From Verrucomicrobia bacterium UBA1211 (GTDB taxonomy: Bacteria; Verrucomicrobiota; Kiritimatiellia; RFP12; UBA1067), in NCBI GenBank assembly GCA_002309585.1, contig DBXN01000137.1, forward strand, positions 1-15,439: a DNA stretch of 15,439 bases, in the 5' to 3' direction. Under the pieces are notes generated by a model, which was not told the origin of the DNA, did not search any database, and was given only the letters and a program-made list of their open reading frames with translations. Below are positions 1-15,328 of the stretch, piece after piece (position 1 is the stretch's first letter; the number at the start of each line of letters is the position of its first letter). The translations under genes and the position numbers were made by a program.

Positions 1-533
1 TCGAGGATGAAGGGCGTACCGTCCTTCCGGATCATCACGTTGGCGGGCTTGACATCGCGGTGCACCACCCCCTGTCCATGCGCGTAGTCCAAGGCCGCGG
101 CGATGGGCGTGAGGATGCGGACCACCTCGGCCTCCGGCAGCCCGGAAGCCTGCGACGGCGAGGGCGCCGCCGCCACATCCGCAAGATACTCGTCCAAAGT
201 TCGGCCGTCGATATAGTCCATCACCAGGAAGGGGTTACCGCCGTTCTCCTCGAAGGCGCGGAGCTGGACGATGTTGGGGTGGACGAGCTTCAGCGAGACC
301 AGCGCCTCCGCCTTCAATTGCGTGTAGGCCCGTTTGTTCTGGACCAGGATACTCGGCAACAGCTTCAGCGCCACGGGACGGTTGTCCAGCTGCGTGTCCT
401 CCGCCAGCCACACTGACCCCATCCCGCCCTGGCCGAGCTGCCGCACCGCGCGGTACCGCCCCGCCAGCAACGTCCCCGCCGCGCTCCCGCCCATCGTCAC
501 ATCATCGTTGATCGTGTTGCTATCCATCGCCAT
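1..533 (-). CDS. Ser/Thr protein kinase (Hanks-type), N-terminal catalytic domain; partial, the 3' end runs beyond the window start
   Basis: Reverse translation reads MAMDSNTINDDVTMGG..GRYRAVRQLGQGGMGSVWLAED..VALKLLP..HRDVKPANVMI... The Gly-rich loop, the VAxK motif and HRDxKPxN are all present. ATG at 531-533 (alternative 525-527) is preceded by a GGAGAAGG SD. It is near-identical to the 5' region of the 12882..14153 kinase gene. Confidence 0.85.
   Translation of the reverse strand, partial: MAMDSNTINDDVTMGGSAAGTLLAGRYRAVRQLGQGGMGSVWLAEDTQLDNRPVALKLLPSILVQNKRAYTQLKAEALVSLKLVHPNIVQLRAFEENGGNPFLVMDYIDGRTLDEYLADVAAAPSPSQASGLPEAEVVRILTPIAAALDYAHGQGVVHRDVKPANVMIRKDGTPFIL
1..533. repeat. Copy A of a ~0.53-kb direct repeat (kinase 5' region). 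Copy B lies at ~13590..14153 in the same orientation.
   Basis: By-eye alignment of 1-533 against 13590-14153 gives roughly 85-90% nt identity, with identical runs over 30 bp (e.g. ggttgtccagctgcgtgtcctccgccagccacac and agctgccgcaccgcgcggtaccgccccgccagca). Confidence 0.75.
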
Positions 534-764
534 GCCCTTACCTTCTCCAACCCCAAGACTCCGGACTTCAGACATCAGACTTCATTTTCATTCTGAAATT
601 CTGACATTAATCCATTATGAAATTCCACTCCGTCCTTCGCCGCGTTTCTCTTCCCTCTTCCCTCTTCCCTATTCAACCGTTGAGGGTTGCGCGTTGAGCG
701 TTGAGGGTCCACTAACCACCGCACCACCCAACCGCAGACCCGCCGCACTCACGCGGACGGGGCT
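534..764 (-). promoter_or_regulatory. Intergenic region upstream of the kinase paralog; AT-rich island with short direct repeats and a presumed promoter
   Basis: 231-bp gap between the Vps4-like stop (765) and the kinase ATG (533). A local AT-rich stretch (570-630) sits in a ~65% GC context. Direct repeats ctgaaattc (593-601) and atgaaattc (617-625), gacttca x2 (564-570, 578-584), ccctctt x3 (646-671) and gttgag x3 (679-705). A gagggttgcgcg motif resembles a REP half-site from 12871-12881. No clean -35/-10 could be assigned. Confidence 0.3.
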
Positions 765-1919
765 TCATTGCCCGAAGCGCTGCTGGTTGAACTGGTCATA
801 CTGTTTGATCATCGCGGGGGTGACGGAGGAAGGAATGACCTTCACCGCATTCTCCAAATCGGAAACGAGGACCATGGGATCATCCCCCGTCTCCACCCCC
901 CGTCTAAAGGCGGCGAGCCGCGCCTTGCGGACGATACCGACGATATCGCTGCCGGTATAGCCGTCCAGACGCTCCGCCCACACCGAATGGTCGATCTGCG
1001 GTTCGCAGGCGACACCCTTGAACGAACGCTCCAGCATACCCAGACGCGCCTCTCGGTCGGGAAGGCCGATATACAACTTCTCATCGAACCGGCCGGTACG
1101 GAAAACCGCCTCGTCAATCGCCCAAGGTTTGTTGGTCGCCCCGAGGATCAGCAGGATATTGTCGCTCTCCCGGAAACCGCCGACATCGGAGAGAAACTGC
1201 GTCACGATGCGGTTGTCCACCACGGAGGAGCTGGCGGTACGGCGCGGCAGCAGCCCGTCGATCTCGTCCAGAAAGAGAACCGCGACGGGACGCGAAGCCG
1301 CCGTCTTCAGCAGACGGCTCAAGTTCTGCTCGCTCTCGCCGTGCCACTTGGAACGCAACTGCGCGCCGGAGGCGTAGAAGAACGGCGCGGCGATCTCATG
1401 GGCGATGGCCTTGCCGAACATGGTCTTGCCGTTTCCCGGAGGCCCGTAGAGGATCACGCCTCCGCCCGGCTTCAGTTTCATCGCCTTCGCCTTCTCGGGT
1501 TCGCGCATCGGATAGATGATCATCTCCCGGATCGCGGCCTTGGCCTGGGTCATCCCGGCGATGTCGTCAAAGGTCACATCCGGAATCTCAGCAACTTCGA
1601 ATGACTCCCCACCGTTCTCCCCGCCGGCATCCGTCTGAGGCGGGTTGCTGGCCGAAGCGGACTGCGGTCCGCCACCATGCGCGGTGGCGTTATTCCGCTT
1701 CGGCAGTTTCGCGGTTGCGAGCTTCTCGGCGATCTCCAGCCATCCTTCCGCCGTTGTCACATAACTGGCGGCGACCGGTCCCGTCGTCTGCTTCGCCAGC
1801 GCGAAGCAGAACTCCGCCGCCTTGGCGGCATGCAACCGGGCGGCGGGGGCATCACCCGCCTGGATGGCGGCTTCGCACGCCTTCTCATGCTCCGTTTTTT
1901 TATCCGAAAGAAAACTCAT
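765..1919 (-). CDS. AAA+ ATPase of the Vps4/katanin/spastin-like type with an MIT-like N-terminal three-helix bundle
   Basis: Walker A GPPGNGKT, Walker B LFLDEID, second region of homology ATNKPWAIDEAVFRTGRFD. The C-terminal helix IPSSVTPAMIKQYDQFNQQRFGQ resembles the Vps4 C-terminus (..RPSV..DLLK..KFTEDFGQ). The N-terminal ~75 aa is predicted helical and MIT-like. Located 9 bp downstream of the peptidase gene. Confidence 0.85.
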   Translation of the reverse strand: MSFLSDKKTEHEKACEAAIQAGDAPAARLHAAKAAEFCFALAKQTTGPVAASYVTTAEGWLEIAEKLATAKLPKRNNATAHGGGPQSASASNPPQTDAGGENGGESFEVAEIPDVTFDDIAGMTQAKAAIREMIIYPMREPEKAKAMKLKPGGGVILYGPPGNGKTMFGKAIAHEIAAPFFYASGAQLRSKWHGESEQNLSRLLKTAASRPVAVLFLDEIDGLLPRRTASSSVVDNRIVTQFLSDVGGFRESDNILLILGATNKPWAIDEAVFRTGRFDEKLYIGLPDREARLGMLERSFKGVACEPQIDHSVWAERLDGYTGSDIVGIVRKARLAAFRRGVETGDDPMVLVSDLENAVKVIPSSVTPAMIKQYDQFNQQRFGQ

Positions 1920-1928
1920 GGCAGATTC

Positions 1929-3059
1929 CTATTCATGACGGTCCGACAGATCGACCCCGATCGTCTTGAGCAACGCCAAAATCTCCCCCATGCCGATCGC
2001 TTCGGCGGCGGAGGGATTGGCCTGAATAAAGTTGAGGAGCCGTTCGATCGAATGCGGATGGGTTGTCGCGGCCACTCCGCGGATAGACTCGAAAACCGCC
2101 AGCGCAAGTTCCCAGATGATCGTCCCGAGCCCCAGCGTCTCCCGGTATTCGCTGGCGCTCACGACCGAGGAGGCGAACGAATCGGCCTCCCGTTCATGGT
2201 TACGGCTGATCTCGTCATTGAGAGCGGATCCGCAACAGTGCCCCAACGCGAGATGGCCGAATTCGTGGGCCAACACACCGATGACTGTCCCGCAGGCGAG
2301 TTCGACAGTCTTCGTCTTCCACTCCTCAACGGAGAGTACGCCGTTGAGATGACAACTGTTCGCGAAGGTGGCGGCGAGTTCCGATGTCAGGCGTGTACCG
2401 TTCCGCTGAAAGTGCTCCACCATCGCGGCGATCACCCGCTGGAAGGGGACAATCCCGACCCGACCCCCCCACGCCGGATCGTCAACGGCCATTTTCCAGC
2501 CGGTATACGCCGCGGCCATCAGCATGGCGTAACGGACAGCGCCGGAAAAGAGGCAGATCGTGGGGAAGCCCTCAAGCGGATCCATCCGCGCGTAGGCGTT
2601 GACCTGGGCGTGATCCAAAAAACCGCCCAACTCCTTCGAGCGTTCCAGCGAGGTCTCGATGAACTTCAGCTGGAGCCGGGGAACCAATGCCGCATACTGG
2701 CTATTGCTGACGACCGATGGCGAGGAACAGACCATCTCCATCAGTCCTTTGACGAGCTGGGCGTTGAAGGTCCAGACATCCCCGCAAACATCGGGGAAAG
2801 GCGACGGCGCAGAAACCGCCGGCAGGGCAGACACGCCCTCCCCCCGGAACGCGGGAACATCGCCATTTCCGGCACCGTAGTTGGGAAGCGCCTGGCCGAC
2901 GCCACCCGACACCCCGATCCCGGCGCTCCGGCTCTCCGGTCCCTGACCCATGCGCCGCCCAAGATCCTGCTGGCGTTGCGCAAGCCGCTGCTCCAAATCC
3001 CGTTGCCGGTCAGCCAACCGTTTGTTGATGCCGTCCAATGCTGACATAACGTTGCTCAC
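1929..3059 (-). CDS. HExxH zinc-metallopeptidase-like protein (ImmA/IrrE M78-like or M48-like catalytic motif) with an N-terminal coiled-coil/low-complexity region
   Basis: Motif LAHEFGHLALGH, then 14 aa, then NHEREADSFA (an HExxH followed by an ExxA(D/N)xFA third-ligand motif). The track start at 3059 is a GTG that overlaps the upstream stop as GTGA; an in-frame ATG lies at 3045-3047. No signal peptide. Confidence 0.7.
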   Translation of the reverse strand: MSNVMSALDGINKRLADRQRDLEQRLAQRQQDLGRRMGQGPESRSAGIGVSGGVGQALPNYGAGNGDVPAFRGEGVSALPAVSAPSPFPDVCGDVWTFNAQLVKGLMEMVCSSPSVVSNSQYAALVPRLQLKFIETSLERSKELGGFLDHAQVNAYARMDPLEGFPTICLFSGAVRYAMLMAAAYTGWKMAVDDPAWGGRVGIVPFQRVIAAMVEHFQRNGTRLTSELAATFANSCHLNGVLSVEEWKTKTVELACGTVIGVLAHEFGHLALGHCCGSALNDEISRNHEREADSFASSVVSASEYRETLGLGTIIWELALAVFESIRGVAATTHPHSIERLLNFIQANPSAAEAIGMGEILALLKTIGVDLSDRHE

Positions 3060-3694
3060 TTTCCGCCAAGAAGATCTTTCACCCGCTGCTGTCCGGCGGC
3101 GATCCGGTCATCAATGGCCTGGCCGGCCGAGGCGGGCGCCGCCGCGCCGCCGATCTCCGCCGCGACCTGCTGTTCCAGCTCCGACGCCATATCATCGAGC
3201 GACGGGATGTGGTCCTGAAGCGCGCCGTTCGCGCCCGCCATCTCATTCTCGTACATCCGGTTCCAGAAACGGTCGGCGTTCACCTGCTCGCCCAGCATCT
3301 CCTGGGCGGTCCCGAAGACATCCTCGACCCGTTCCGGATCGATCCGGATGATCGCATTGATCTGGCCCAGCGCCTCGGCGAACTGGTTGTCGGACTGCGC
3401 GACCTCCATCTTCGTCAGATACTGCTCGAAGACCCAGCGTTTCTGCTCCAGCTTCATCGCCAGCACCTGCGCCGCGCGAGCCGCGGTCAGCGCACGGTTG
3501 GCCGCCGCCTTCTCGCCGCTCTTCAGCGCCTCGCGCGCCTTCTCCCAACTCTCCTTCGCCTCTTTCTCCAACCGCTTCTGACGGTCGATCACATCCTGCT
3601 TGGCGTTCTCGGCGTCCCGGAACGCATGACGGCGCTCACGCCGCTCCAGACGGCGGCGGGCGGCGGGAAACATGAAATATTTTAAGAATGACAT
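3056..3694 (-). CDS. ESCRT-III/Snf7-like protein (PspA/Vipp1/ESCRT-III superfamily)
   Basis: 212 aa with a basic N-terminus and an acidic C-terminus. The segment IDRQKRLEKEAKESWEKAREALKSGEKAAANRALTAARAAQ follows the CHMP alpha1-alpha2 pattern (LDRExxKLE..IKKAxKxGN..A). The C-terminal amphipathic helix IDDRIAAGQQRVKDLLGGK looks MIM1-like. A strong SD (AAGGAG) lies 6 nt upstream of ATG 3694. Confidence 0.7.
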   Translation of the reverse strand: MSFLKYFMFPAARRRLERRERRHAFRDAENAKQDVIDRQKRLEKEAKESWEKAREALKSGEKAAANRALTAARAAQVLAMKLEQKRWVFEQYLTKMEVAQSDNQFAEALGQINAIIRIDPERVEDVFGTAQEMLGEQVNADRFWNRMYENEMAGANGALQDHIPSLDDMASELEQQVAAEIGGAAAPASAGQAIDDRIAAGQQRVKDLLGGK

Positions 3695-3732
3695 AAGGGT
3701 TTCTCCTTCCTTCGAGGCAGCGGACCACCGTT

Positions 3733-4653
3733 TCAGAAATCGGCCAACGGATCGGCGGGGACAGAAGGTTCCCCGGGCCCTTTCTCCGCCTCCGACGGCT
3801 CCGTCAAAGGCACATCCGGAAGCTCGTCCCCAAACGCGGCCAACGCATCGCTGAAGGATCCGTCATCTTCCCGTTCGTGGCGAACGCCGGCTTTGTCGAG
3901 ATCGCCGATCGCCCCGTCGATGTCATCGGCGGTATCGGCGGCATCCTCAACCTCATCCGTCAGTTTATCGATACCCGCCTCGCTGATACCCTTGAGGTTC
4001 ATCGCCACCAGCTCGTTCATGCGGCCCTTCACCTTGGTCAGTACCGTCTCGTTCTTCAGGTAGGCGGCCATCTGACGTTCCAGCGACTGGTATTCGGCGA
4101 GCGCGCTCTTCAACTCCATCTCCAGAATCTTCTTCCGGGCGGGCGGCGCCGACTGATAGAGCTTCTTCTTGGCGACAATCAACCGGTAAAGCTCATCATA
4201 GCGGCGCGCCACCGGCTCGCGTCGAGCCCGATTCTCCTCGATCTGCGCCTCAATCGTCCGCATCGCCTCCTCGGGATCGCGAATCCCGGCGAGCCGTTTC
4301 GCGAGACTGCCCGCCCCTTGCCCGAGCTTCACCGCGAACTCCCCGATCTGTTTGAGGATCGACGCTTTCTTCGCGGCCGGCAGTTTCGCCGCCGCATTCG
4401 GATCCACTGTCTGGCCCGCTTCGTTTCCATCAATCATTTTCAATTCCTCCGTCTTCTCATGAACGCGACTCTCCGGGCTCAACATCCCGCCGGATTTCCA
4501 ACCGTGTGCCGGACACCGCCGGTTACCATTATGCCAGTGAAAGGCGCAGAAGACACTTCCGCACCCTTCACTCTCACACCGACCGGCGACCGCGTACCGA
4601 TTGGGCAGGACGCGGCCGCAGACCGAACAGACTTGTGGCTCAGAACCGGCCAT
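3733..4653 (-). CDS. Zinc-ribbon / Snf7 (ESCRT-III) fusion protein
   Basis: N-terminal zinc ribbon CSVCG..C.SEGCG..C..H...C.H. The core ARKKILEMELKSALAEYQSLERQMAAYLKNETVLTKVKG...VAMNLKGISEAGIDKLTDEVEDAADTADDIDGAIGDLD aligns with the CHMP4/Snf7 alpha2-alpha4 pattern (KNKRAALQALKRKKRYEKQL...KAMK..DIDKVDELMQDI.DQQE). The C-terminal tail ELPDVPLTEP...PSVP is MIM2-like. SD GAGGTG; the stop of the upstream gene is 1 nt away. Confidence 0.75.
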   Translation of the reverse strand: MAGSEPQVCSVCGRVLPNRYAVAGRCESEGCGSVFCAFHWHNGNRRCPAHGWKSGGMLSPESRVHEKTEELKMIDGNEAGQTVDPNAAAKLPAAKKASILKQIGEFAVKLGQGAGSLAKRLAGIRDPEEAMRTIEAQIEENRARREPVARRYDELYRLIVAKKKLYQSAPPARKKILEMELKSALAEYQSLERQMAAYLKNETVLTKVKGRMNELVAMNLKGISEAGIDKLTDEVEDAADTADDIDGAIGDLDKAGVRHEREDDGSFSDALAAFGDELPDVPLTEPSEAEKGPGEPSVPADPLADF

Positions 4654-4654
4654 C

Positions 4655-5764
4655 TCACCTCACACGCGTGGACGCTTTGATGAACATCACAACCAGCGCC
4701 AGCGCGGCCAGAATGGCCAGCGGCACCACCACCGCCAAAACCGGTTTCGCGCGGAGCGCAGGGAAAAGGGTGCAGATCCGCTCCCACCACCCGTACTCCG
4801 GCGTGTAGGGTTCGGAGATGCAGATCGTGTCGCTCCAGAGCTGTTCGCGCGTGGAGGCCTTTTCGATGCAGGCCTGGATCTCGGCCGTCAGCGTATACTT
4901 CTTTTCGGTCGGAAGCGTCGATACGGGCGTCACCGACAAATCCCGGAGCGATCCGATCAGCAGGGCATCCGCCTGGTCGGGCTTGTCACGGAGCGCGAGC
5001 CGAGCCTCGCCCGGCGTGGCGATGTCGAGATTGACCGTCGTCAGGTCTGTACGGGCAACGGCGTCCCGCACGATATCGGCGGCATAATGGTCCCGATCGC
5101 CCGCGAAGGGCAGGAAGGCGACCCGTTTCACACCCGCCAGTTTCGGCGAACCTTTAATCGAGGCGATGATGGCCTCACGGAGTTTCCCCTGCATGATGTT
5201 CCGCAGCGAGACGGGGATGTCGGTCAACCCTTTCTCCGAGGCGGAGGCATCGGGAATATAGTACCGCTTGGCGAAGATACCGCCCCAGAGATGGCGCTTT
5301 TCCGCGATGGAGGTCGCATGCAGCTCGATCTCAAAGAAGACACACCGCTCGTTGCGCGAGGTATTCCGGATGAATGCGGAGAGGAGAACCTGCGCCGACT
5401 TCAGTTTTCCGAATCGGTCCACCGTGGCGGGATCCAGAATGTCCTCTTTGCGGGCATCCCAGGTGATCTCCTTGAGAATCTCGTTCCACAGCGGATCCTC
5501 CTTACCCTCGACGCAGGTCTTGCCAGCGCGGGTCAACGCGATCTTCAACTGCCCCGCGATCCACCCGTCCGTATCGCCGGCGACCGGAAGGATCGCCACG
5601 GCGGCGGCCGCCGGGATCCCCGCCGTTTTCAAGGCCGCCTCGGCATCCTGAACCGCGCCCTGCACCGCCTGCCTGAAATGCTCATCGACAGGAACCGTCT
5701 GCGCCGCAGCCATCCACGCGACCGCCGCAACCGCCATCCATATCCACCGTTTTTTCATCGTCAT
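4655..5764 (-). CDS. Exported protein with two tandem CsgG/LpoB-like (TolB-N-like) modules and a C-terminal transmembrane anchor
   Basis: Signal peptide MTMKKRWIWMAVAAVAWMAAAQ (start at 5764 or 5758 chosen over the track's 5812; SD AAGGAGG directly upstream). Modules AILPVAGDTDGWIAGQLKIALTRAGKTCV...ILKEITWDARKEDILDPATVDRFGKLKSAQVLLSA and VAFLPFAGDRDHYAADIVRDAVARTDLTTVNLD...ALLIGSL match the CsgG-family pattern. C-terminal hydrophobic helix PVLAVVVPLAILAALALVVMFI. Paralog of 5788..6972. Confidence 0.65.
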   Translation of the reverse strand: MTMKKRWIWMAVAAVAWMAAAQTVPVDEHFRQAVQGAVQDAEAALKTAGIPAAAAVAILPVAGDTDGWIAGQLKIALTRAGKTCVEGKEDPLWNEILKEITWDARKEDILDPATVDRFGKLKSAQVLLSAFIRNTSRNERCVFFEIELHATSIAEKRHLWGGIFAKRYYIPDASASEKGLTDIPVSLRNIMQGKLREAIIASIKGSPKLAGVKRVAFLPFAGDRDHYAADIVRDAVARTDLTTVNLDIATPGEARLALRDKPDQADALLIGSLRDLSVTPVSTLPTEKKYTLTAEIQACIEKASTREQLWSDTICISEPYTPEYGWWERICTLFPALRAKPVLAVVVPLAILAALALVVMFIKASTRVR

Positions 5765-5787
5765 CTCTCCCTCCTTTTCCAGAAAAC

Positions 5788-6972
5788 TCATTTGACGTAA
5801 CCGAGATCCCATTCGGGATGTTTGACCATCAGCGTGTTCAGAAAACCGTCCGAGAATTGTTCCGCATCAAAAACGATCCGGAACGTGAACGTTCCCGTCT
5901 TCGCATCCTGGCGGATCAGCCGCGCCGAGCGCACGCCCTTTTCCGCATTCACCGTCTGGCAGAATTCGGCCTGCAACTTCAACTCATCCGCCGACACCAC
6001 CTTCTCACGAAGCTTCAGCTCAACCGTCGAAACCTTCAACCCGACCTGTTCCGGCGTGAAAGAGGCTTTCACCCACTCGCCCGCCTCGGCGGTCAGCGCG
6101 TTCGCCAGATTCTTCTCCGCGGCGGCCTCGCCCAACCCGCGCGCGCCACTCTTCGTCACCGTCTTCTCAGCGAGCGTACGGGGATTGCCTCCCAAGATCC
6201 GGGTCTTCAGCGAGAGGGAACCGGTCAGTTTGTACCACTCGCCCGTGCGGTCAAACACCTCGCGGGACGCGGAGACTGTAACCTCGACATCGGGAGGGAA
6301 CGGGCTGTCCACGACATAACCCGCCTTGGCCAATGCGTTGCGGATGGCTGACGCGGCATCATCGATCACAACCGCCGCATTTCCCTTCTCGCAACGGACC
6401 GCAACCCGGATCCGGGAAGGATCCGCCATACCCTGCGCCGTCTCACCGATCGTCTTGATCGGCGCGAATTTACCGTCGATCACATTGGCGCCCCACACAT
6501 ACTGCTTGGTCTTGATGGCATAGGCCAACAGATTCAGTTCCGCCACCGTCTCCTTGGGACCGTTCTTGACGATCTCAACGGCGCTTTCGAGGAGGATCTG
6601 CGTGGACTTCAGCTCACCCAACGTGTCGATCGTCGCCGGATCGACGCTCCTCAGGATCGCCTGGCGCTCGTCCCATTTGATCTCGGAGAGAATCCGCTTG
6701 AACCGCGCGTCCTTCTCCTCGTCATTGGCGGTCACGCACGTCTTTCCGGCGCGGGTCAGCGCCTGGATCAGAAGACCCTCGAAATAACCTTCCTGATCAC
6801 CCTTGACCGGAAGGACCGTGATCGCCTTCCCGTCCAACACGGAAACGGACCGGATCTCCGACTCCACCGTCCCGGCGAGTTGCCGTAACGCCGCGCGCTC
6901 CTTTTGGTCAAACGCCAGCAGCGTCAACGGGGCGAGAAAAACCAGCATCAACCCTTTTGCCATTGCCTTCAT
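5788..6972 (-). CDS. Exported protein with CsgG/LpoB-like modules (paralog of 4655..5764)
   Basis: Signal peptide MKAMAKGLMLVFLAPLTLLA. Modules ITVLPVKGDQEGYFEGLLIQALTRAGKTCV...FKRILSEIKWDERQAILRSVDPATIDTLGELKSTQILLESAV are near-parallel to the downstream paralog. The ATG abuts the stop of the upstream lipoprotein gene (TAAATG). Confidence 0.65.
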   Translation of the reverse strand: MKAMAKGLMLVFLAPLTLLAFDQKERAALRQLAGTVESEIRSVSVLDGKAITVLPVKGDQEGYFEGLLIQALTRAGKTCVTANDEEKDARFKRILSEIKWDERQAILRSVDPATIDTLGELKSTQILLESAVEIVKNGPKETVAELNLLAYAIKTKQYVWGANVIDGKFAPIKTIGETAQGMADPSRIRVAVRCEKGNAAVVIDDAASAIRNALAKAGYVVDSPFPPDVEVTVSASREVFDRTGEWYKLTGSLSLKTRILGGNPRTLAEKTVTKSGARGLGEAAAEKNLANALTAEAGEWVKASFTPEQVGLKVSTVELKLREKVVSADELKLQAEFCQTVNAEKGVRSARLIRQDAKTGTFTFRIVFDAEQFSDGFLNTLMVKHPEWDLGYVK

Positions 6973-7554
6973 TTATTTCCTTCCTTTCACGTTTTGATCC
7001 AACCAATCCGCAATCGCGCAGGCCAAAGGCGCAACCAAGACCTTCTCTGCATCGGCGCGGCCCAATTTGCGGGGCCCCTGCACGACAAAACGTTTGTCTA
7101 CCGTCTCTGTCCCGTCCGCAGCGGCAAACGCGATCCGTGCGTCAACCTGCCCATCGCAAACGAACCACTCGTCCAGCCTGGCCTTCACGGAGGAGGACGC
7201 GGAGAGAGTCAACCCGGCATAGGGCACGTTTCCGTCAATGAAACGATACCCGCGTTTCGTCAGCTCCTCACGGAGCCGGACGGCGATATCCGCCGCAAAT
7301 GTCGCTCCCGTCGCCCCGCTCGCCGCCACGCTGACCGTCACGGTATCGGTCACGGGTTTCGGCTGTTCCTGAACCGGCGCGGACTCGGCGACCGGCGCGG
7401 GAACGGGTTCAGCAACCGGCGCGGGCGCTTGAACCGCCGGAGACTCCTGGACCACCACAACCTCCACCGGTATCGGCCGCTGCGTGACGCATCCCGAAAA
7501 CACAACCGCCGAAAACGCGGCTACCGCCGTCAATAGACCATTCACCTTCTTCAT
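6973..7554 (-). CDS. Lipoprotein with a Pro/Ala-rich linker and a C-terminal alpha/beta domain
   Basis: Start chosen at MKKVNGLLTAVAAFSAVVFSGC (lipobox VFSGC; ATG 7552-7554; AAGGA ~10 nt upstream) rather than the track's 7761. Linker PAVQAPAPVAEPVPAPVAESAPVQEQPKP. The C-terminal segment FAADIAVRLREELTKRGYRFIDG resembles the CsgG/LpoB-like module of its neighbours. Confidence 0.65.
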   Translation of the reverse strand: MKKVNGLLTAVAAFSAVVFSGCVTQRPIPVEVVVVQESPAVQAPAPVAEPVPAPVAESAPVQEQPKPVTDTVTVSVAASGATGATFAADIAVRLREELTKRGYRFIDGNVPYAGLTLSASSSVKARLDEWFVCDGQVDARIAFAAADGTETVDKRFVVQGPRKLGRADAEKVLVAPLACAIADWLDQNVKGRK

Positions 7555-7570
7555 TTCATAATCCTTTCGT

Positions 7571-8989
7571 TTACTCTTTACGCTGATGATAACGTCCGGC
7601 TCTGTACGGAACGCCAGCCACCTCAACCGACATTCCCGGTACGATCTTTCGCCCAGAAACCAAGAAACACTTTCCATTCCAAACCCAGTCACATCCCCCG
7701 CACGGAACTTTTCGGCTGACAATGGCGACAACCTGTTCGTCCAACCCGTCATCACGGACAAGCGTGAAACCGGAAATCAGGCCGTCGTCACAGATGAAAA
7801 GTTCCAACGTGAATCCCACAACCCCCTCCGGATAATTCGGAGCCTTCGCGCCAAAAGTCAGGTGTGAGACACCCCGGGGAATAACCATCCCGCCCGGGCC
7901 GACCTCATTCCCCTCCACCTGGACACCCCAGGTGGACGGCTCCCCTTCCATTCCGTCAAAGATCCGCAGTCTTCTCCCATCAGAGACCGTGAGCCTGAAG
8001 TGGCGGCGGGAAAGACACATCGATCGGCTCTTATCCATCTGATGACATTCACGGTCAAACACCCGGACCACGTAATCACAGGTGTCGTGACGGCCGCAGA
8101 CCATTGTCTCGTCGGAGCCCAACGCCCACAGTTGGATCATTTTCCCCGCACCCGTCAACGTCAGTCGGGGGGCGCCCCCCTCAAGGTCGACCGCCAACTG
8201 ATGCGTCACCGCCCGCGACTGCTCAACCCGCGGATCCCGCAGATTGATCCCGCTCACGGCCGGCGAATGGTACTGGAGCAAACTCGCGCCCGCCCCGTTC
8301 ACTTCCACCTTCGTATCGATAGTGATGCTGTTTGGGCTGGCGTGATCCAGCACCCGAACGGGGAAAACCGCGCTGAACACATCCGGATCATCCATCCCGT
8401 CCCGTACGCAGAAGAAGCGCACCGTCAACTCAACGGTTCCCGCAACCTTCGGACAGACATTCAGAGGGAAAGTCAACCGCTCCGTGGTGGGCCGGTAACC
8501 CAGCGGATGGCGCTGCACCTCATTCGGCCCGTTGAAAAGCGCCACCGTCACATCGGCATAGAGATCCTCCACCGCCTGGAACACAATCTTGACCGGCGAT
8601 GACCACCCCTTCCACATGGTTTCTGGGAACGTCACCGTCGCACCGAAGGGCATTCCATCCGGGATTTCCACCGGCGGCGCCACCGACGCGCCGAAGGGCG
8701 GATACCCCGTCATCCCGCCGAACGGTGCGATCGGATCAAGCGGCCGCAACGGCGGCAGGTTCGCGGGAGCCGCCGGGTTGAACCCGGAGGGCGCTCCCGC
8801 AGGAGGAGCCGCGGGTTGCGGACACGCGCGTTGCGCGACATCCGGCACGGGCGCGGGGGCCGGCGCGGGCACAGCGACGGGCTCCGGCTCGCAGAGCCGC
8901 CCCGCCGCCGGGCCGCAATTCTCGCAAAAGGTGCCGACCTCGCCCAGCAACCCGCAAAGGGGACATTTGACTTCCGCCATGCGAACCAT
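7571..8989 (-). CDS. Zinc-ribbon / Pro-rich linker / beta-rich middle domain / C-terminal FHA domain protein
   Basis: N-terminus CPLCG...CENCG. FHA-like region GRHDTCDYVV..SRRHFRLTVSDGRRLRIFDGMEGEPSTWGVQVEGNEV (GR...SRxH...D..StnGt.vng pattern). The SD AGGAAGGA abuts ATG 8989, so the in-frame ATG at 8980 (MAEVKCPLCG) may be the true start. Confidence 0.75.
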   Translation of the reverse strand: MVRMAEVKCPLCGLLGEVGTFCENCGPAAGRLCEPEPVAVPAPAPAPVPDVAQRACPQPAAPPAGAPSGFNPAAPANLPPLRPLDPIAPFGGMTGYPPFGASVAPPVEIPDGMPFGATVTFPETMWKGWSSPVKIVFQAVEDLYADVTVALFNGPNEVQRHPLGYRPTTERLTFPLNVCPKVAGTVELTVRFFCVRDGMDDPDVFSAVFPVRVLDHASPNSITIDTKVEVNGAGASLLQYHSPAVSGINLRDPRVEQSRAVTHQLAVDLEGGAPRLTLTGAGKMIQLWALGSDETMVCGRHDTCDYVVRVFDRECHQMDKSRSMCLSRRHFRLTVSDGRRLRIFDGMEGEPSTWGVQVEGNEVGPGGMVIPRGVSHLTFGAKAPNYPEGVVGFTLELFICDDGLISGFTLVRDDGLDEQVVAIVSRKVPCGGCDWVWNGKCFLVSGRKIVPGMSVEVAGVPYRAGRYHQRKE

Positions 8990-8996
8990 ATCCTTC

Positions 8997-11198
8997 CTAC
9001 TTCACGAGGTTGATTGAAGGCGGCGGAGGAGGCGGGGGCGTCTGCGTCTGATTGATCACGTTCACCGGACGCTCCACCGCGCGGGCGGCGATATCATGAA
9101 GCATCCGCATCGTCTCCTCATCATGGGCGACCCGCTGGTCAGTCATGCGCTTCATCTCTTCGACAAGCTTGTCATGCTGGGCGACCTCGGCCGCGGCTTG
9201 CGCGGAAGCCGCCTGGGCTTCCGCCTGAGCCTTGGCCGCGAGAGCCTGCGCGGCAGTCGCCGACCGTCCCGCCTCCCGGGCCAGAAGCTGCTCCGCCGTC
9301 ATCCCCTTCTCCGCCTCAAGCCGCGCCTTCTCCAACTCCTGCTCCTGCTGGAACCGCGCCAGTTCCATCAGTTGCCGCCGCTGTTCCGGGTCCTTCTCCA
9401 GCGCAGCCATCTCCACCGGGCTGAGGCCCTTAATCACCGTTGCAAGGCTCTCCCGTTCCTTGGCGTCCAACTCCTGAAGCCGCGCGAGATTCTTGAGCTG
9501 GTTCTCCATCCCCTCCTGTGCGATCTCCTGGGCGGTCCGGGTTTCATAGTTTTTGACGTCGATCCCGGTTTTCGCGACCGTCGCGTCGGCTTGGGCATCC
9601 TTGATCCGATCGGAACGGTGGATGTCTCCGATGCCCGACTGGTGCTCAGCGTCTTTCCGTTCTTCATCCCGCAACACGTCACTGACCGCGCTCTTCCCCT
9701 GCGCGGTGGCGAGCGACTCGGCGATCTCATGTTCCCGGATACGGCTGTCCTTCTCGAACCGATGGTCAAGCTCGCGGCGTTCCCGCTCAAACTGGTGCTC
9801 AAGCTCCGCAAATTCACGATCATGTTCCCGCGACAGCTTCGCCAGCTCCTCCTCCGCTCCCTTGGCATCGATTTGCCCATCGGCGGCCATCCGCGCGATC
9901 TTCAGCTCGACCTCGCGGGAGAGATCGGAAAGTCCCTTCTCCTGCGCCAGTTGCTTGATGTACTCCTCGGAATCCTGGGCGCGCCGGGCCGCCTCGCGCT
10001 TCCGCCGCTCCTCCAGATCCGCCTGATCCCGTTCGGAATCCGCCGTAATGACCAGTTCACGGTAACGCTCCGCCTCGGACTCCGCGCGCTGCGTCAGCTT
10101 ATGCTCGCGACTCTCGCGCTCCTCGTCAAGGATGTGCTCATGCAGTTTCTTATCATATTCCAGCTGACGGCGCTTTGCGTCCAGCTCGCCGTACCGCTTA
10201 CGCATCTCCTCGTATTCGGCGCTGACGAAATCGACATATCCCACCCGCACCAGCTCAAGGCCGGAGCGTTTCAGCAGATCCTTGAGCGCGCGCCCGATCG
10301 CATCCTCAAACCGGGGTCTGCGTTCCGGATCTTTCACCAGATCTTCGATCTTCGACTGCAGGCAGAGATCCTTCACCGCAGCCGAAGCCTCGGACAGCAG
10401 CCACGTCCCGATATCTTCCGCGAAAAGTCGGTTCGCCCGGTCCTGCCCCGTGCCGTCCGTCCCGGCATCCGGCTGCCCCGCGCCGCCCGACGCCTGAACA
10501 CCCCGTTCCGATTTCATCACATTGGCGAGGAACGCGTTCGCCTCACCCGGATTGAAACGGATCGTCACCTCCGCGATGACCTTGACCGGAAGCTCCTCGG
10601 CAGTCCTCATTCCCGGGAAATCCACCCGAAAAACGCAGTCGCCTGAATCGACCATCACCACACTGTGCGGCGGCGGATTGCCGAACCAGTTGATGGTCCG
10701 GAGCGTCCCCTCCGGGTTGTGCCGCCCAGGCCCCAAAATCGCCGCCTTCTTCCCGGCATCCAGAAGGATCGCCACCGTCCCCTCCTGGATTTTGAGTCCG
10801 CCCTTGGCGATGCCCGTCACGTCGGAAAGCTCAATCCGCTGGGCGAAAACGCCCGGATCGCGGTCCCAGACCCCGCCGGCGAGATTCGGCCGCTCTTCGG
10901 GATGAAGCGGATAGTTGCAGTGCGGGCAGAAGCGGGAATCGTTCCCGACCCATGCGTGGCAGGAGGGGCACTTCACCCAGCCGTTCGGCGCCCCGTGTCC
11001 GCATTTGGAGCAGAACCGCGCCTTCTTGGAGACCGAATGCCCGCAAATCCCCCAGCCCTTCTGGGCGAGCACGGATTCCTTGTTCCATCGCGACGCGCCA
11101 AGCAGCAGCGTCTTCGCCTCATCCAGCTTCGCACCCGTGAGCGCCTGCCCCGTCTTCAAATCAACAATCGCCTCGCACGTATCATGAAAGAGTCCCAT
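8997..11198 (-). CDS. Double zinc-ribbon / SPFH (band-7) domain / long flotillin-like coiled-coil protein with a poly-Pro C-terminus
   Basis: N-terminus CSKCG..CPSCH..CPHC. SPFH-like segments IQEGTVAILLDAGKKAAILGPGRHNP...VDFPGMRTAEELPVKVIAEVTIRFNPGE and RALKDLLKRSGLELVRVGYVDFVSAEYEEMRK. Then ~400 aa of charged coiled coil with flotillin-like EA repeats (AKAQAEAQAASAQAAAEVAQ), ending TPPPPPPPS. SD AGGAGAA upstream. Confidence 0.7.
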   Translation of the reverse strand: MGLFHDTCEAIVDLKTGQALTGAKLDEAKTLLLGASRWNKESVLAQKGWGICGHSVSKKARFCSKCGHGAPNGWVKCPSCHAWVGNDSRFCPHCNYPLHPEERPNLAGGVWDRDPGVFAQRIELSDVTGIAKGGLKIQEGTVAILLDAGKKAAILGPGRHNPEGTLRTINWFGNPPPHSVVMVDSGDCVFRVDFPGMRTAEELPVKVIAEVTIRFNPGEANAFLANVMKSERGVQASGGAGQPDAGTDGTGQDRANRLFAEDIGTWLLSEASAAVKDLCLQSKIEDLVKDPERRPRFEDAIGRALKDLLKRSGLELVRVGYVDFVSAEYEEMRKRYGELDAKRRQLEYDKKLHEHILDEERESREHKLTQRAESEAERYRELVITADSERDQADLEERRKREAARRAQDSEEYIKQLAQEKGLSDLSREVELKIARMAADGQIDAKGAEEELAKLSREHDREFAELEHQFERERRELDHRFEKDSRIREHEIAESLATAQGKSAVSDVLRDEERKDAEHQSGIGDIHRSDRIKDAQADATVAKTGIDVKNYETRTAQEIAQEGMENQLKNLARLQELDAKERESLATVIKGLSPVEMAALEKDPEQRRQLMELARFQQEQELEKARLEAEKGMTAEQLLAREAGRSATAAQALAAKAQAEAQAASAQAAAEVAQHDKLVEEMKRMTDQRVAHDEETMRMLHDIAARAVERPVNVINQTQTPPPPPPPSINLVK

Positions 11199-11212
11199 TT
11201 CCGTTCTCCTGT

Positions 11213-11569
11213 TTACTGATGTTGGTCATTTCCCGTTAAAGTGTGTTCCGTGCACTTCCGCACGCCCCGTCGCGTCCAGCAGTCGAAGCAGATCGGTTTC
11301 CCGCATCCCTCCTCCGTGCATCCCTGCCGAAGCGACCCGTTCGACCGGTAGAACGTCCCGCATACGCTACAGACGCCCCCTTCGGCCGCGGTCCGTTTAC
11401 TCCGTTCCAAATACCCGTCAAGATCGCTCTTCGCCACACGATACAGCTTACCCAGCCGCGCCGCCGGCAGCTCCCCGCTCCGGACCAGCCTGTAAATGAG
11501 CTGATAGGTGACACCCAGCATCTCCGCCACCTCCTCAAGGCTCATGTATCCCGTCTCTTTCCCATCCAT
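11213..11569 (-). CDS. Excisionase/MerR-type HTH DNA-binding protein with a C-terminal zinc ribbon (putative regulator of the cluster)
   Basis: MSLEEVAEMLGVTYQLIYRLVRSGELPAARLGKLYRVAKSDLDGYL matches the excisionase-family HTH. C-terminal zinc ribbon CSVCG...GCTEEGCG..C..C...C. Perfect SD AGGAGG lies 5 nt upstream of ATG 11569. It is the first gene after a promoter-like region. Confidence 0.8.
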   Translation of the reverse strand: MDGKETGYMSLEEVAEMLGVTYQLIYRLVRSGELPAARLGKLYRVAKSDLDGYLERSKRTAAEGGVCSVCGTFYRSNGSLRQGCTEEGCGKPICFDCWTRRGVRKCTEHTLTGNDQHQ

Positions 11570-11587
11570 CGCATCCTCCTATCGGTC

Positions 11588-11613
11588 CTTTGATGGTTAT
11601 GACTTTATCAAAG
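11588..11613. promoter_or_regulatory. Candidate operator: 7-bp perfect inverted repeat ctttgat-N12-atcaaag overlapping the -10 region of the HTH gene
   Basis: ctttgat at 11588-11594 and atcaaag at 11607-11613 (8/8 except one position if extended). It sits between the predicted -10 and the transcript start of the HTH gene. Confidence 0.45.
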
Positions 11614-11668
11614 TTACTTTCTGATGTCAATTAGGTATTTTATTTTATTTTTGTTTATTTTTGTTTTA
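11602..11668 (-). promoter_or_regulatory. Sigma70-like promoter for the HTH-led operon: A/T-rich UP-like element, -35 TTGACA, 17-bp spacer, -10 TAAAGT
   Basis: On the minus strand, TTGACA is the reverse complement of 11625-11630. A 17-nt spacer (rc 11608-11624) leads to TAAAGT (rc 11602-11607). The upstream 11636-11668 is an A/T-tract block (ttgtttattt repeats), unusual in a ~65% GC sequence. The leader is ~25 nt to the SD/ATG. Confidence 0.5.
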
Positions 11669-11672
11669 CAAC

Positions 11673-11699
11673 CTTGCAACCCTTCAAGGGGGTTGCAAG
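11673..11699. repeat. REP-like palindrome cttgcaaccc-ttcaagg-gggttgcaag (10-bp perfect stem)
   Basis: Read directly from the sequence. It shares the GCAACCCC/GGGGTTGC core with the palindrome at 12855-12881 on the other side of the RAYT gene. No U-tract follows on either strand. Confidence 0.55.
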
Positions 11700-11703
11700 C
11701 AGG

Positions 11704-12708
11704 TCACACCGAGTGTTCCATATACACAACCCCCTCACCACCCCCTCGCCCAACCTGGTTACCACCCCCTTGAGGGGTTGTAACATACACCGTCCGCCCC
11801 CCCTCATTCCCCCGTGCAATCGCGGCCGCGATGTAATTGAGCCCCAACAGCTCGCCGCGCCGCGGCGGCTCATCCGGATCGGCCATCCGCGAAAGGACCA
11901 GCAACCGTTTCTGAGCGAAGAGTTGCGGCTCGACCCCATGCGGCCGGTATGCCAAATCCAAAAAAGTCGGCGCGAGCCGGATCATCGGTACGCCATCCGT
12001 TTCCGACAACGTCTTGAACACCATTCGCTCGCCCGGCGAGAAGAAGGTGGAAATGTAGAGATACCCCTTCTCCACCGCGCCGCGGCGGCACACCGCGACC
12101 ACCCGCGGTAACGCCGCCTCCGGCACCTTCCGCGAAATGCGGAGCGACACCAGACGTCCCTTTTCCAGCAGGTCACAGTTCCCCACCGCGCGCCAAAGAT
12201 CATCCTCCCCCGCCTCCGGCACGGCAAATGGCTCGACCACATGCATCAGTGATCGGTCCCCATGCATCAACCACCATTTGAGCGGGTTGTTTCGAATGTA
12301 GGCATCCACCGCACGGTTCATGCGTTCCGATGTGCAGATGAGATCGTGGTAGCCCGCCTCCCAAATGCCCGGCGCACGCCCGGCAATGTGGTAGTGGGAA
12401 AACTGCTTGAAACGACCGACGAACGCGCCGATCTTCTTCACGGCATCAGCGCACCCCGCCGGCCAAGTGAAACGGAGATGCGCATGGTCGGGCATGACCG
12501 TCCAGGCACGAAGGGTGATGAATCCCGCGAAATGACCCGCTGCTTCGAGAAGGTCACGCTTCACGATCCCGCCCGCCTCCGAAAGCGCCACGCCATCGTG
12601 ATCCACACGGCCAAACAGCGGGCGGCGCGGTTCGAGGCAGATCGTCACAAACATCGATCCCCCGCGCGCATAGTCATACCCGCTGAATCTCCGGTGTGTC
12701 TTGTGCAT
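11704..12708 (-). CDS. REP-associated tyrosine transposase (RAYT / IS200-like Y1 HuH transposase) with a C-terminal extension
   Basis: MHKTHRRFSGYDYARGGSMFVTICLEPRRPLF (RAYT N-terminal signature), HuH motif MPDHAHLRF, catalytic Tyr motif AVDAYIRNNPLKW. Start placed at ATG 12706-12708. The 59 codons upstream of it in the track ORF are encoded by the tandem repeat array and are judged non-coding. The 3' boundary is uncertain; a core of ~165 aa is followed by ~170 aa of unknown function. Confidence 0.8.
   Translation of the reverse strand: MHKTHRRFSGYDYARGGSMFVTICLEPRRPLFGRVDHDGVALSEAGGIVKRDLLEAAGHFAGFITLRAWTVMPDHAHLRFTWPAGCADAVKKIGAFVGRFKQFSHYHIAGRAPGIWEAGYHDLICTSERMNRAVDAYIRNNPLKWWLMHGDRSLMHVVEPFAVPEAGEDDLWRAVGNCDLLEKGRLVSLRISRKVPEAALPRVVAVCRRGAVEKGYLYISTFFSPGERMVFKTLSETDGVPMIRLAPTFLDLAYRPHGVEPQLFAQKRLLVLSRMADPDEPPRRGELLGLNYIAAAIARGNEGGRTVYVTTPQGGGNQVGRGGGEGVVYMEHSV
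11765..11780. repeat. Small palindrome cccccttgaggggttg, related in reverse orientation to the 11673-11699 REP-like element
   Basis: cccct-tg-agggg with a flanking ggttg. It approximates the reverse complement of the first palindrome (caacccccttgaagggttg). It lies inside the 3' end of the RAYT ORF. Confidence 0.35.
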
Positions 12709-12740
12709 CACCCACGCGCCCTTTTCCCACTGCCGTTGTT

Positions 12741-12881
12741 CCAACCCGCGCGCACCCCCCCGCGCCCAACCCGCGCGCAACCCCCTCGCACCCAACCCGC
12801 GCGCAACCCCCTCGCGCCCAACCTGCGCGCAACCCCCTCGCGGGGCCCAACCTGCGCGCAACCCCCTCGCGGGGTTGCGCG
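12741..12881. repeat. Tandem array of about five 26-bp REP-like units (cccaaccYgcgcgcaaccccctcgcR). The last copy forms an 11-bp perfect-stem palindrome (12855-12881).
   Basis: Copies at 12741-12764 (degenerate), 12765-12790, 12791-12816, 12817-12845 and 12846-12881. Last copy cgcgcaacccc-ctcgc-ggggttgcgcg. The array begins 1 nt after the kinase stop codon (12882-12884). There are no unique spacers, so it is not CRISPR. Confidence 0.7.
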
Positions 12882-14153
12882 TCATCCCGTAACCGACCGC
12901 GCCGAGATCTGCCCGGTAACCCTATTGGTCGATAGGATGATCACGGGGGCGTCCACTTGAATGCCAGCCCGCCCCCAGGCCATCTTGAATGTCAGCCGAT
13001 CGCCGCGCGGCACCTTCACCACGATCTTCTCATTGCGCCCCACTTTCCCGATGCACACCCCGTTATGGTAAACCGAGACGGCGGGCGGAAACAGGTACCA
13101 CTCCCGGTAGCCATAGATGGTGACGGAGATCTCCTCCGCCAATTCCCCGCGACGCGGCGGATCGGAACGGGAAATGTCCACGCCCTCCCTCGGCGCCGGC
13201 GGCGGCACGTCCGGCACATCATACGGGACCGCTTTCCGAGTCTCAACAACCGCCGCCGACTCTCCGGAGACGATATCCAGACAGCTCGCCGGCCGGTCCT
13301 CCGGGCGCTTCATGAGCCCCCGCATGACGGCGGTGGCGAAGGGCGTGGCGGAGGGCAGGGGCGGAGGCGGCTCGTTCTTGATCTGATCCTCGATCGCGCC
13401 GCGCCAAAAGGGCGGATGCCCGGCAAGGCACTCATACGCCATCGCGGCGAAGGAGTAGATATCCTGACCCTTCGCCGGGGCGGAACCCCGCAGCTGCTCG
13501 GGCGACATGTAGGTGAGCGTCCCGCTCGCGGACTGCCCCGTCACCCGCGTCATCGACTCCTGCGCCTCCCGGGCGATCCCGAAATCCAGAACGAACGGAT
13601 GCCCGTCGCGCTTACGGATCATCACGTTGGCGGGCTTGACGTCACGGTGGACCACCCCCTCGCCGTGCGCGTAATCGAGCGCGGCGGCGACAGGCGTGAG
13701 GATACGGATCACATCGGCTTCCGGCAGCCCCTGGGTGCCATCCGTTCCCCGCTTGTCCGCCATAGCTTTAGCGAAGGCGGATTCCCCATTCCCCGTTCCC
13801 CATTCCCCAAGATAGTCGTCCAGCGTCTGGCCCTCCACGTAGTCCATCACCAGGAAGGGGTTGCCGCTGTTCTCCTCGAAGGCTCGGAGCGTCACAATGT
13901 TGGAATGCGAAAGTTTCAGCGAGACCAGCGCTTCCGCCTTCAGCTGCGCATAGGCCCGTTTGTTCGCGACCAGGATACTTGGCAGCATCTTGATCGCCAC
14001 GGGCCGGTTGTCCAGCTGCGTGTCCTCCGCCAGCCACACCGAACCCATCCCGCCCTGGCCCAGCTGCCGCACCGCGCGGTACCGCCCCGCCAGCAGAGTC
14101 CCTTGGGCGCCGCCGCCCATCGTCACGTCATCGTTGATTGTATCGTAGGTCAT
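12882..14153 (-). CDS. Ser/Thr protein kinase (Hanks-type) with a C-terminal ~120-aa beta-rich extension
   Basis: GQGGMGSVWLA, VAIKML, HRDVKPANVMI, DFG, TLTYMSPE and a Pro-rich linker, followed by a beta-rich C-terminal domain. The ATG at 14151-14153 overlaps the stop of the upstream ATPase gene (ATGA). Confidence 0.9.
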   Translation of the reverse strand: MTYDTINDDVTMGGGAQGTLLAGRYRAVRQLGQGGMGSVWLAEDTQLDNRPVAIKMLPSILVANKRAYAQLKAEALVSLKLSHSNIVTLRAFEENSGNPFLVMDYVEGQTLDDYLGEWGTGNGESAFAKAMADKRGTDGTQGLPEADVIRILTPVAAALDYAHGEGVVHRDVKPANVMIRKRDGHPFVLDFGIAREAQESMTRVTGQSASGTLTYMSPEQLRGSAPAKGQDIYSFAAMAYECLAGHPPFWRGAIEDQIKNEPPPPLPSATPFATAVMRGLMKRPEDRPASCLDIVSGESAAVVETRKAVPYDVPDVPPPAPREGVDISRSDPPRRGELAEEISVTIYGYREWYLFPPAVSVYHNGVCIGKVGRNEKIVVKVPRGDRLTFKMAWGRAGIQVDAPVIILSTNRVTGQISARSVTG

Positions 14154-15328
14154 AAGCCGACTCCGTTTTCATCGTCAGAAGAGAACATCGAGCGCAGATT
14201 CCTGGCCCGTACACCGTCCGAAAAGTCGTAGTCTTCGCCGTCGTAGATGACGCTGGCCGTGCTGACGCGCGCATCATCCCGTTTGAACGTGCGGAGATTC
14301 TTCGCAAAATCGTCGTGGAAGGTCATGGCGGACTTCACCTCGGCAATGTCCAGTTTGCGGCAACCCTCGGACACAAGGTCTATTTCAAAACCGCTTTCCG
14401 TGCGAAGAAAATGCAGATTGGCCTCCTTCCCGCGATTGGCCCGCGACTTGACCGCTTCCATCACCACGAGATTCTCGAACAACGCCCCGCGCAAGGGATC
14501 GTGCGCGACATGCTCCGGTGTCTCCAGATGCAGCAGGTACGCGGCGAGGCCGGGTTCCGTGAAATAGAGTTTCGGCGACTTGACAAGCCGTTTGGACCGG
14601 TTTGTGAAAAAAGGCTGAAGGCGAAAAACGATGAACGACGATTCAAGGACGGAAATCCAGCTGGAAATCGTCGTCGCGGACACGCCGACTTCCCCTGACA
14701 GCGCGGCATAGTTGACCAGCTGCCCCGTACGTCCCGCGAGCAGGCGGACAAACCGCTCGAACAGCGCGACATCCTTGACGTTCACGATCTTGCGCACATC
14801 CCGCTCAACGTAAGTCTGGAAATAGTTCCGGTAATAATCGTGCGGATCGATCTCCGCCACATGGAGCTCCGGCATGAATCCGCGCCAGATCAGCTCGTCG
14901 GTCGCGAGCGCCTTTGCGGACGCGCCCAGCTCCTCCAGCGACGGCGGATACAACGTCAGCAGAGAGGTGCGCCCGGCAAGAGACTGCGAAACCGCCTCCA
15001 CGAGAAGCGGCTGGTGCGAACCGGTCAGGATAAAGTGTCCGGCCCTGCGGCGGTCGGCGTCGATCATCACCTGAATCTGCGAAGTGAGCTCCGGCACACG
15101 CTGCACCTCATCGATGACCACCGGCGGCTTGAACCTGCGGAAAAACGCCTCGGGGTCGCCCGCCGCCAATCTGCGCGTTTCAAGATGCTCGAGATTGGCG
15201 TAGGCGTAGTCGGGGAAAAGTGCCCGGGCAAGCGTCGTCTTACCGCTCTGTCGGGGACCGAACAACGTCACAGATGGATACTGCCGCGCCGCTTTCAAGA
15301 CGCACGATGCTATTTTTCGCGTAATCAT
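14150..15328 (-). CDS. AAA-superfamily ATPase of the COG1373 type (AAA_14 + DUF4143-like)
   Basis: N-terminus MITRKIASCVLKAARQYPSVTLFGPRQSGKTTL (P-loop), Walker B VVIDEVQ, and the typical ~390 aa length. The ATG at 15326-15328 is preferred over the track's TTG start at 15334. Confidence 0.85.
   Translation of the reverse strand: MITRKIASCVLKAARQYPSVTLFGPRQSGKTTLARALFPDYAYANLEHLETRRLAAGDPEAFFRRFKPPVVIDEVQRVPELTSQIQVMIDADRRRAGHFILTGSHQPLLVEAVSQSLAGRTSLLTLYPPSLEELGASAKALATDELIWRGFMPELHVAEIDPHDYYRNYFQTYVERDVRKIVNVKDVALFERFVRLLAGRTGQLVNYAALSGEVGVSATTISSWISVLESSFIVFRLQPFFTNRSKRLVKSPKLYFTEPGLAAYLLHLETPEHVAHDPLRGALFENLVVMEAVKSRANRGKEANLHFLRTESGFEIDLVSEGCRKLDIAEVKSAMTFHDDFAKNLRTFKRDDARVSTASVIYDGEDYDFSDGVRARNLRSMFSSDDENGVGL

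Follow-up and report, generated by a model that had tools for sequence, protein, structure and literature searches.

A diverged direct repeat formed by the 5' regions of two predicted paralogous Ser/Thr kinase genes in Verrucomicrobia bacterium UBA1211

The window, that is, the whole stretch of DNA that was analysed, comprises 15,439 nucleotides of contig DBXN01000137.1 (assembly GCA_002309585.1), and all of its long genes lie on the minus strand (Table 1). Read in that direction, they encode a COG1373-type ATPase and kinase B, which are followed by REP-like units and a RAYT-like gene, an HTH_17 gene, a zinc-ribbon/SPFH gene and a zinc-ribbon/FHA gene. Three proteins come next, whose N-termini, read by eye from the translations, are hydrophobic and signal-peptide-like, and then a zinc-finger/coiled-coil protein, a weak Snf7-like protein, a peptidase U49/Lit-like protein, an AAA ATPase, a spacer and kinase A. 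This gene order bears out an earlier note on the same DNA, which had a kinase gene closing each of two gene blocks and took the two kinases for paralogues with a common orientation. Indeed, the COG1373-type ATPase leads into kinase B, and the series that starts with the HTH gene and ends with the AAA ATPase leads into kinase A.

Table 1. Predicted features of the window and, in the last row, of related loci (numbered from L001).
Feature	Position	Strand	Remarks
Repeat copy A	1..515	-	two ungapped blocks, 178-515 and 1-143
Kinase A, 5' part, 177 codons	533->1 (alternative ATG 527)	-	Pkinase 1.8e-24, above gathering score
Perfect match, 26 nt	28-53 / B 13615-13640		
Divergent loop	A 144..177; B 13731-13803	-	39-nt (13-codon) indel
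Perfect match, 23 nt	214-236 / B 13840-13862		
Longest perfect match, 35 nt	379..413 (B: 14005-14039)	.	
Perfect match, 34 nt	436-469 / B 14062-14095		
Spacer between AAA ATPase and kinase A, 231 nt, lower GC	534..764	-	
Single-domain classical AAA ATPase, last gene ahead of kinase A	765..1919	-	'Vps4-like' in the earlier note
Peptidase U49/Lit-like	1929-3059	-	phage-exclusion protease Lit 1.7e-08
Snf7-like, weak	3056-3694	-	Snf7 4.8e-5, sub-threshold
Zinc-ribbon + FHA protein	7571..8989	-	FHA 0.0029, below cut-off
RAYT-like gene	11704..12880, probable start 12708	-	NCBIfam REP_Tyr_transpos 3.8e-11, below cut-off
Kinase B, complete, 423 aa	12882..14153 (14153->12882)	-	Pkinase 2.2e-39
Repeat copy B	13588..14141	-	homologous span within kinase B
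COG1373-type ATPase (AAA_14 + DUF4143)	14150..15328	-	PADLOC PDC-S01 1.6e-94
Kinases with a common C-terminal domain	L005 10004-12385; L007 8233-10146; L008 10001-13639		

Kinases A and B are, judged from profile scores and motifs in their translations, Hanks-type Ser/Thr protein kinases. Against the Pkinase profile PF00069, kinase B scores 135.9 bits (cut-off 31.7) and the fragment of kinase A 87.0 bits. In kinase B the catalytic motifs GQGGMGSV, VAIK, HRDVKPAN and DFG are intact; the kinase domain covers approximately residues 25-290 and is followed by a C-terminal region of about 120 aa, a homologue of which was absent from the related loci. Kinase A displays the N-terminal tag MDSNTINDDVTMGG, the Gly-rich loop GQGGMGSV, VALK and HRDVKPAN, and it runs off the window at residue 177, two residues short of DFG. 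The tag, in the general form x-T-I-N-D-x-V-T-M-G-G or, more narrowly, x-T-I-N-D-D-V-T-M-G-G, precedes the catalytic domain in nearly every homologue of the family, and in the window it is encoded at 491-527 (A) and 14111-14147 (B). The best solved structural relatives of kinase B are StkP, PknB and PknA.

The stop codon of the ATPase gene overlaps the start codon of kinase B (ATGA), so that the two form a two-gene module in which kinase B would be translationally coupled to an ATPase of the COG1373/PDC-S01 type. Between kinase B and the HTH gene lie the RAYT-like gene and the REP-like units: five tandem 26-nt units (GCGAGGGGGTTGCGCGCAGGTTGGGC) occupy 12740-12880, just upstream of the RAYT-like gene, and related inverted copies are found just downstream of it (11674-11783). 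Since the 393-aa ORF 11704..12885 runs through the REP array, the true start of the RAYT-like gene is probably the ATG at 12708. The label of an ESCRT-like cluster, used in the earlier note for the genes ahead of kinase A, derives from the sub-threshold Snf7 match and from the AAA protein, which scores best with CDC48/VAT and archaeal CdvC, and also with IetA, in all cases below the family cut-offs. A Vps4-like ATPase appears to be absent in bacteria according to a 2025 review (PMC7619361), and no description of a bacterial Snf7/Vps4/SPFH/FHA/kinase system was found in the literature; given the statement of the review, a proper test of the Snf7-like/AAA cluster would be worthwhile. The spacer ahead of kinase A does not resemble the sequence that precedes kinase B, and a scan of it for promoters and terminators found none.

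Several of these genes resemble components of known or candidate defence systems. In particular, kinase B matches PADLOC models of PD-T4-6 (3.2e-65) over residues 22-312, that is, over the catalytic domain only, and the ATPase matches PDC-S01, with the Lit-like peptidase and the IetA-like AAA protein nearby. PD-T4-6 is a single-gene anti-phage kinase, whereas the kinase found here is coupled to other genes, and the matched domain is the generic catalytic one. The neighbourhood appears to have a defence-island flavour, and each kinase may provide the regulation or the output of its block. It is also possible that the FHA protein works as a phospho-threonine reader for the kinase. On a more speculative note, threonines of the N-terminal tag could be phospho-docking sites for the same protein. 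A search of viral contigs gave no relevant match and therefore no sign of a phage-borne segment.

A repeat search of the window recovered a direct repeat, far above chance, in the regions 1..533 and 13590..14153, where repeats of about 0.53 kb and 88% identity, bracketing some 13.6 kb, had been reported. The repeat is real, and its copies both lie on the minus strand at a spacing of 13.6 kb, but its limits and its identity have to be corrected. Two ungapped matches were found, one of 300 nt (178-477 versus 13804-14103, 86%) and one of 120 nt (24-143 versus 13611-13730, 85%), which are shifted in register by the 39 nt of a 13-codon indel. In a codon-aware alignment of 175 codons, copies A and B share 419 of 525 nucleotides (79.8%) and 80% of their amino acids, with 82%, 91% and 67% identity at codon positions 1, 2 and 3, respectively; nucleotide identity is 85.2% across 178-515 and 82.5% for both ungapped blocks pooled. 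The value of 88% is thus too high, as the ungapped blocks reach 85-86% at most. The reported runs of more than 30 identical base pairs are present, the longest perfect matches measuring 35, 34, 26 and 23 nt. The homologous span extends from about 515/14141 to 1/13588, so that it starts 12 nt inside both ORFs and leaves out the flanks, and the DNA upstream of the two copies is unrelated (16-36% identity). Because copy A is cut at the left edge of the window, the length of 0.53 kb is a minimum set by that edge. The two blocks are separated by a divergent loop, in which identity between A and B is lowest (62-66% of nucleotides) and whose length differs between members of the kinase family; judged from the order of the motifs, the loop may be placed after helix alphaD and ahead of helix alphaE in the kinase fold. 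As an observation, the repeat of the earlier note is therefore confirmed in part.

The similarity of the copies had been taken to point to recent duplication or gene conversion. By the Nei-Gojobori method, the divergence of A and B amounts to pS 0.41, pN 0.13, dS 0.60 and dN 0.14. Among the 134 degenerate codons that specify the same amino acid in both copies, 92 are identical, while saturation would leave 56 (sd 5.5) by the codon usage of the window and 67 by that of the kinases; saturation is thus rejected, and the synonymous sites are below it with z about 6.5. A recent segmental duplication was considered and rejected as well, given the unrelated flanks and a homology that halts at the ORF boundary, which excludes segmental duplication for A and B, and given a dS of 0.60, which speaks for no recent event of either duplication or homogenisation. 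A scan for a conversion tract, that is, a segment of low synonymous divergence, was not significant in A and B (P = 0.23) or in the pair of kinases of the related locus L004 (P = 0.28), and the 35-nt run is not exceptionally long when compared with codon-column shuffling (P = 0.08). For this pair, recent duplication or conversion can thus be set aside. The earlier note had also named what would refute its proposal, namely identity at protein-constraint levels only, with saturated synonymous sites; the alignment gave sites short of saturation. The actual situation falls between what the note proposed and what it said would refute the proposal, so that the interpretation as a whole is partly supported.

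The closest matches in genome collections come from rumen or gut Kiritimatiellae MAGs of other species (63-77% protein identity), and a search of metagenome contigs yielded two distant loci. Kinase A shares 70-77% protein identity with dozens of homologues from other rumen Kiritimatiellae or metagenomes and 80% with kinase B, which is only marginally its best BLAST match (279 vs 268 bits). The identity shared with foreign homologues and a genomic GC3 of 0.76 indicate that much of the nucleotide identity between A and B reflects constraint on the catalytic core and codon usage. In related loci, several copies stand on the same strand within about 20 kb, four in L004, three each in L009 and L097 (a 481-kb contig), and two each in L005 and L008; the complete copies recovered measure 423-1212 aa. 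Most related copies lie directly downstream of a gene block. Indeed, L004 contains an ATPase-kinase pair with overlapping stop and start, as in the window, and in L009 a kinase comes directly after a Lit-like peptidase; in L005 a kinase is found one short ORF downstream of a Lit-like peptidase, and likewise a kinase one short ORF downstream of an AAA gene. Tandem kinase-terminated blocks are the normal layout, from which the bracketing of a gene block by kinase 5' regions follows. Other arrangements were observed as well. At 7689-18002 of L097, coding sequence for RCC1/WD40 repeats alternates with three tandem kinases; two of these kinases, L097b and L097c, share 96% protein identity, and an HTH_17 gene is next. 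At 17833-20501 of L008 (MAG RGIG6350), a DUF4143-type ATPase is directly followed by HTH_17 and then by zinc-ribbon/SPFH genes, with neither kinase nor RAYT between the ATPase and HTH_17, unlike in the window.

Expanded families of Hanks-type kinases occur in the PVC group, myxobacteria and actinobacteria. The kinases of the window share with those of the PknB/StkP type the Pkinase fold and all catalytic motifs, and the family likewise combines many paralogues per genome and a conserved catalytic domain with variable C-terminal domains. It differs from them by its own N-terminal tag, by a kinase B in which neither PASTA nor a transmembrane part was found, and by the position of its copies as the last gene of tandem defence-like blocks.

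The favoured reading, to which a probability of about 75% is assigned, is that the repeat consists of the 5' coding regions of paralogous kinases from a multi-copy family of rumen Kiritimatiellae, that is, of ordinary paralogy and no dedicated recombination device. The repeat codes for the N-terminal tag and the N-lobe through the catalytic loop of two kinases, each the 3'-terminal gene of its own block, with kinase A closing the block of HTH, SPFH, FHA, Snf7-like, Lit-like peptidase and AAA genes. The similarity of the copies would stem from common descent, from a catalytic core under strong purifying selection (dN/dS about 0.24) and from the GC3-rich codon usage that both share as genes of one genome, and their last common ancestor or homogenisation would not be recent. 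As the succession of block and kinase, block and kinase recurs in relatives, the bracketing of 13.6 kb would be a by-product that requires no dedicated device. The paralogy, the divergence values, the multi-copy family, the recurring arrangement and the breaks in assemblies are observed, whereas infrequent recombination and the part that each kinase plays in its block are inferred.

Purifying selection alone is insufficient, since A and B are each other's nearest relatives and their dS is lower than that of either copy against all other genomes (at least 0.95); lineage-specific duplication or homogenisation must thus have contributed to some extent. Within genomes, dS amounts to 0.39 in L004, 0.52 in L009, 0.60 in the window and 1.24 in L005, so that three genomes fall within 0.39-0.60, compared with 0.5-2.8 between genomes. 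Same-genome nucleotide identity is 83% in L004, 88% in L009 and 90% in L097, the latter with a 50-nt perfect run, so that these pairs equal or exceed the window pair in similarity. In bootstrapped nearest-neighbour counts over 102 ungapped codons, N-lobes of the same genome are mutual nearest neighbours in four of five genomes (the window, L004, L009 and L097), and the result is the same for amino acids, nucleotides and third positions, with 97-100% bootstrap for the window pair. It is at this level of the family that the earlier proposal of gene conversion retains some ground, none being detectable within the A/B pair. On the sequences at hand, the clustering by genome fits lineage-specific duplication or slow concerted evolution, which give the same pattern when, as here, sampling comprises one genome per species.

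Concerted evolution would mean that conversion repeatedly homogenises the 5' kinase segment among the paralogues of one genome, and that this segment serves, over evolutionary time, as a recombination joint for new combinations of upstream blocks and C-terminal domains. Besides the clustering and the within-genome dS, it is favoured by the two L004 kinases, L004a and L004b, whose same-codon fraction falls from about 0.9 in the N-lobe to about 0.5 in mid-domain. It is also favoured by L005b, L007 and L008a, which have a homologous C-terminal domain (33-45% identity) and N-lobes that do not group together, a mismatch that points to re-assorted domains or homogenised N-lobes within the family. 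On the other hand, neither the window pair nor the L004 pair contains a low-divergence tract, a dS of 0.60 means no recent event, independent lineage-specific duplications would cluster alike, and the codon bias of the genome raises third-position identity. Taken together, these points make concerted evolution rather unlikely, albeit with some weight. The more far-reaching proposal that the segment is a recombination joint in rumen Kiritimatiellae, where conversion homogenises N-lobes and occasional crossovers delete, duplicate or re-assort defence-like blocks and C-terminal domains, is doubtful; if true, a protein-coding repeat would be the basis of a cassette-shuffling architecture. A comparison may be drawn with tufA/tufB, rrn operons and rhs elements, dispersed paralogues of bacterial chromosomes between which ectopic recombination or gene conversion takes place. 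As in these, copies A and B are closer to each other than to cross-genome homologues, and their direct orientation is such that a crossover would delete or duplicate the interval. In these classical cases the copies share about 99% identity across at least a kilobase, whereas A and B reach only 80-86% within some 0.5 kb, their perfect runs do not exceed 35 nt, and no rearrangement between them was observed.

The kinase family also affects assembly. The best 120 database homologues measure 122-308 aa and are all shorter than any complete copy (at least 423 aa); 58 of these 120 reach the DFG motif, and the NCBI-named entries among them are labelled partial. A search with the C-lobe of B, aimed at the missing 3' end of kinase A, retrieved truncated proteins only, none of them more than 81% identical. 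Exact-protein matches are confined to contigs of only 0.6-5.3 kb; of these, every Logan contig and a single ENA contig match the window at 99.6-100%, and three shorter ENA contigs at 97-99%. Metagenome runs are the source of the contigs identical to the window, in which its junctions recur at 100% identity: from the AAA gene into kinase A in L001-L003, from the ATPase into kinase B in L096, and from kinase B through RAYT and HTH to SPFH in L089. These five derive from three Logan runs (SRR5324824, SRR094437 and SRR094926), SRR5324824 being the only source of both kinase-B junctions. The ends of L089 and L096 fall exactly 30 nt (k-1) inside the 35- and 34-nt runs, which shows that copies A and B coexist in SRR5324824. 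The three independent unitigs L001-L003 all end at 490, a position at which A differs from B, and at least a third paralogue that has a 31-mer in common with the tag region of A is thereby implied in their samples.

Copy A, or positions 1-489, might accordingly be a contig end that ran into another paralogue and does not truly lie downstream of the AAA gene. Such an artefact would agree with the independent unitigs, which support the junction between the AAA gene and kinase A down to 490 only and evidently meet a third sequence there, with a window that ends within a kinase domain like essentially all database homologues, and with a right end (15439) only 4 nt away from the point where a unitig stops (15435); the window is probably a whole contig bounded by repeats. 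It is very unlikely nonetheless, as the ORF is open and in frame from the ATG at 533 to position 1 with the expected motifs present, and as the kinases of L005 and L009 directly downstream of equivalent blocks make a kinase expected here, whatever its sequence.

RecA-dependent recombination requires some 25 nt or more of perfect match, and homologous recombination declines steeply, in a roughly log-linear manner, as divergence grows, with mismatch repair acting against it. Copies A and B do not form a long near-identical direct repeat, being 80% identical overall, 85-86% in blocks, with perfect runs no longer than 35 nt; at 15-20% divergence and with only three perfect segments of 26-35 nt, they are a poor RecA substrate. 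The three segments do reach the minimal pairing length, and the copies are direct and in frame, so that an ectopic crossover between them would leave an intact in-frame B/A hybrid kinase behind the ATPase, with loss of 534..13589. Ectopic RecA recombination of this kind should be possible and rare. The 100%-identical contigs from other samples, which are unitigs too short to reveal a hybrid junction, carry only the junctions of the window, and no deleted or amplified form was seen among them. In a relative, L097b and L097c, 90.3% identical over 722 nt and 5.6 kb apart, remain collinear in a second assembly (L098) that matches the first at 99.9%. With tandem kinase-terminated blocks as the normal layout of the family, a working switch, in which RecA-mediated deletion or tandem amplification of 534..13589 would turn a RAYT and ESCRT-like cassette ON or OFF or change its copy number, is unsupported and very unlikely.

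Collectively, the repeat taken alone matters little, because conserved catalytic cores make two paralogous kinases look repeated, and such repeats should not be called switches without read-level evidence. In practical terms, the kinase family systematically breaks short-read assemblies of Kiritimatiellae, whose contigs end inside kinase genes, as the window probably does too. For the biology of the family, the tandem kinase-terminated blocks, the N-lobes clustered by genome and the discordant C-terminal domains provide a modest lead on the re-assortment of gene blocks.
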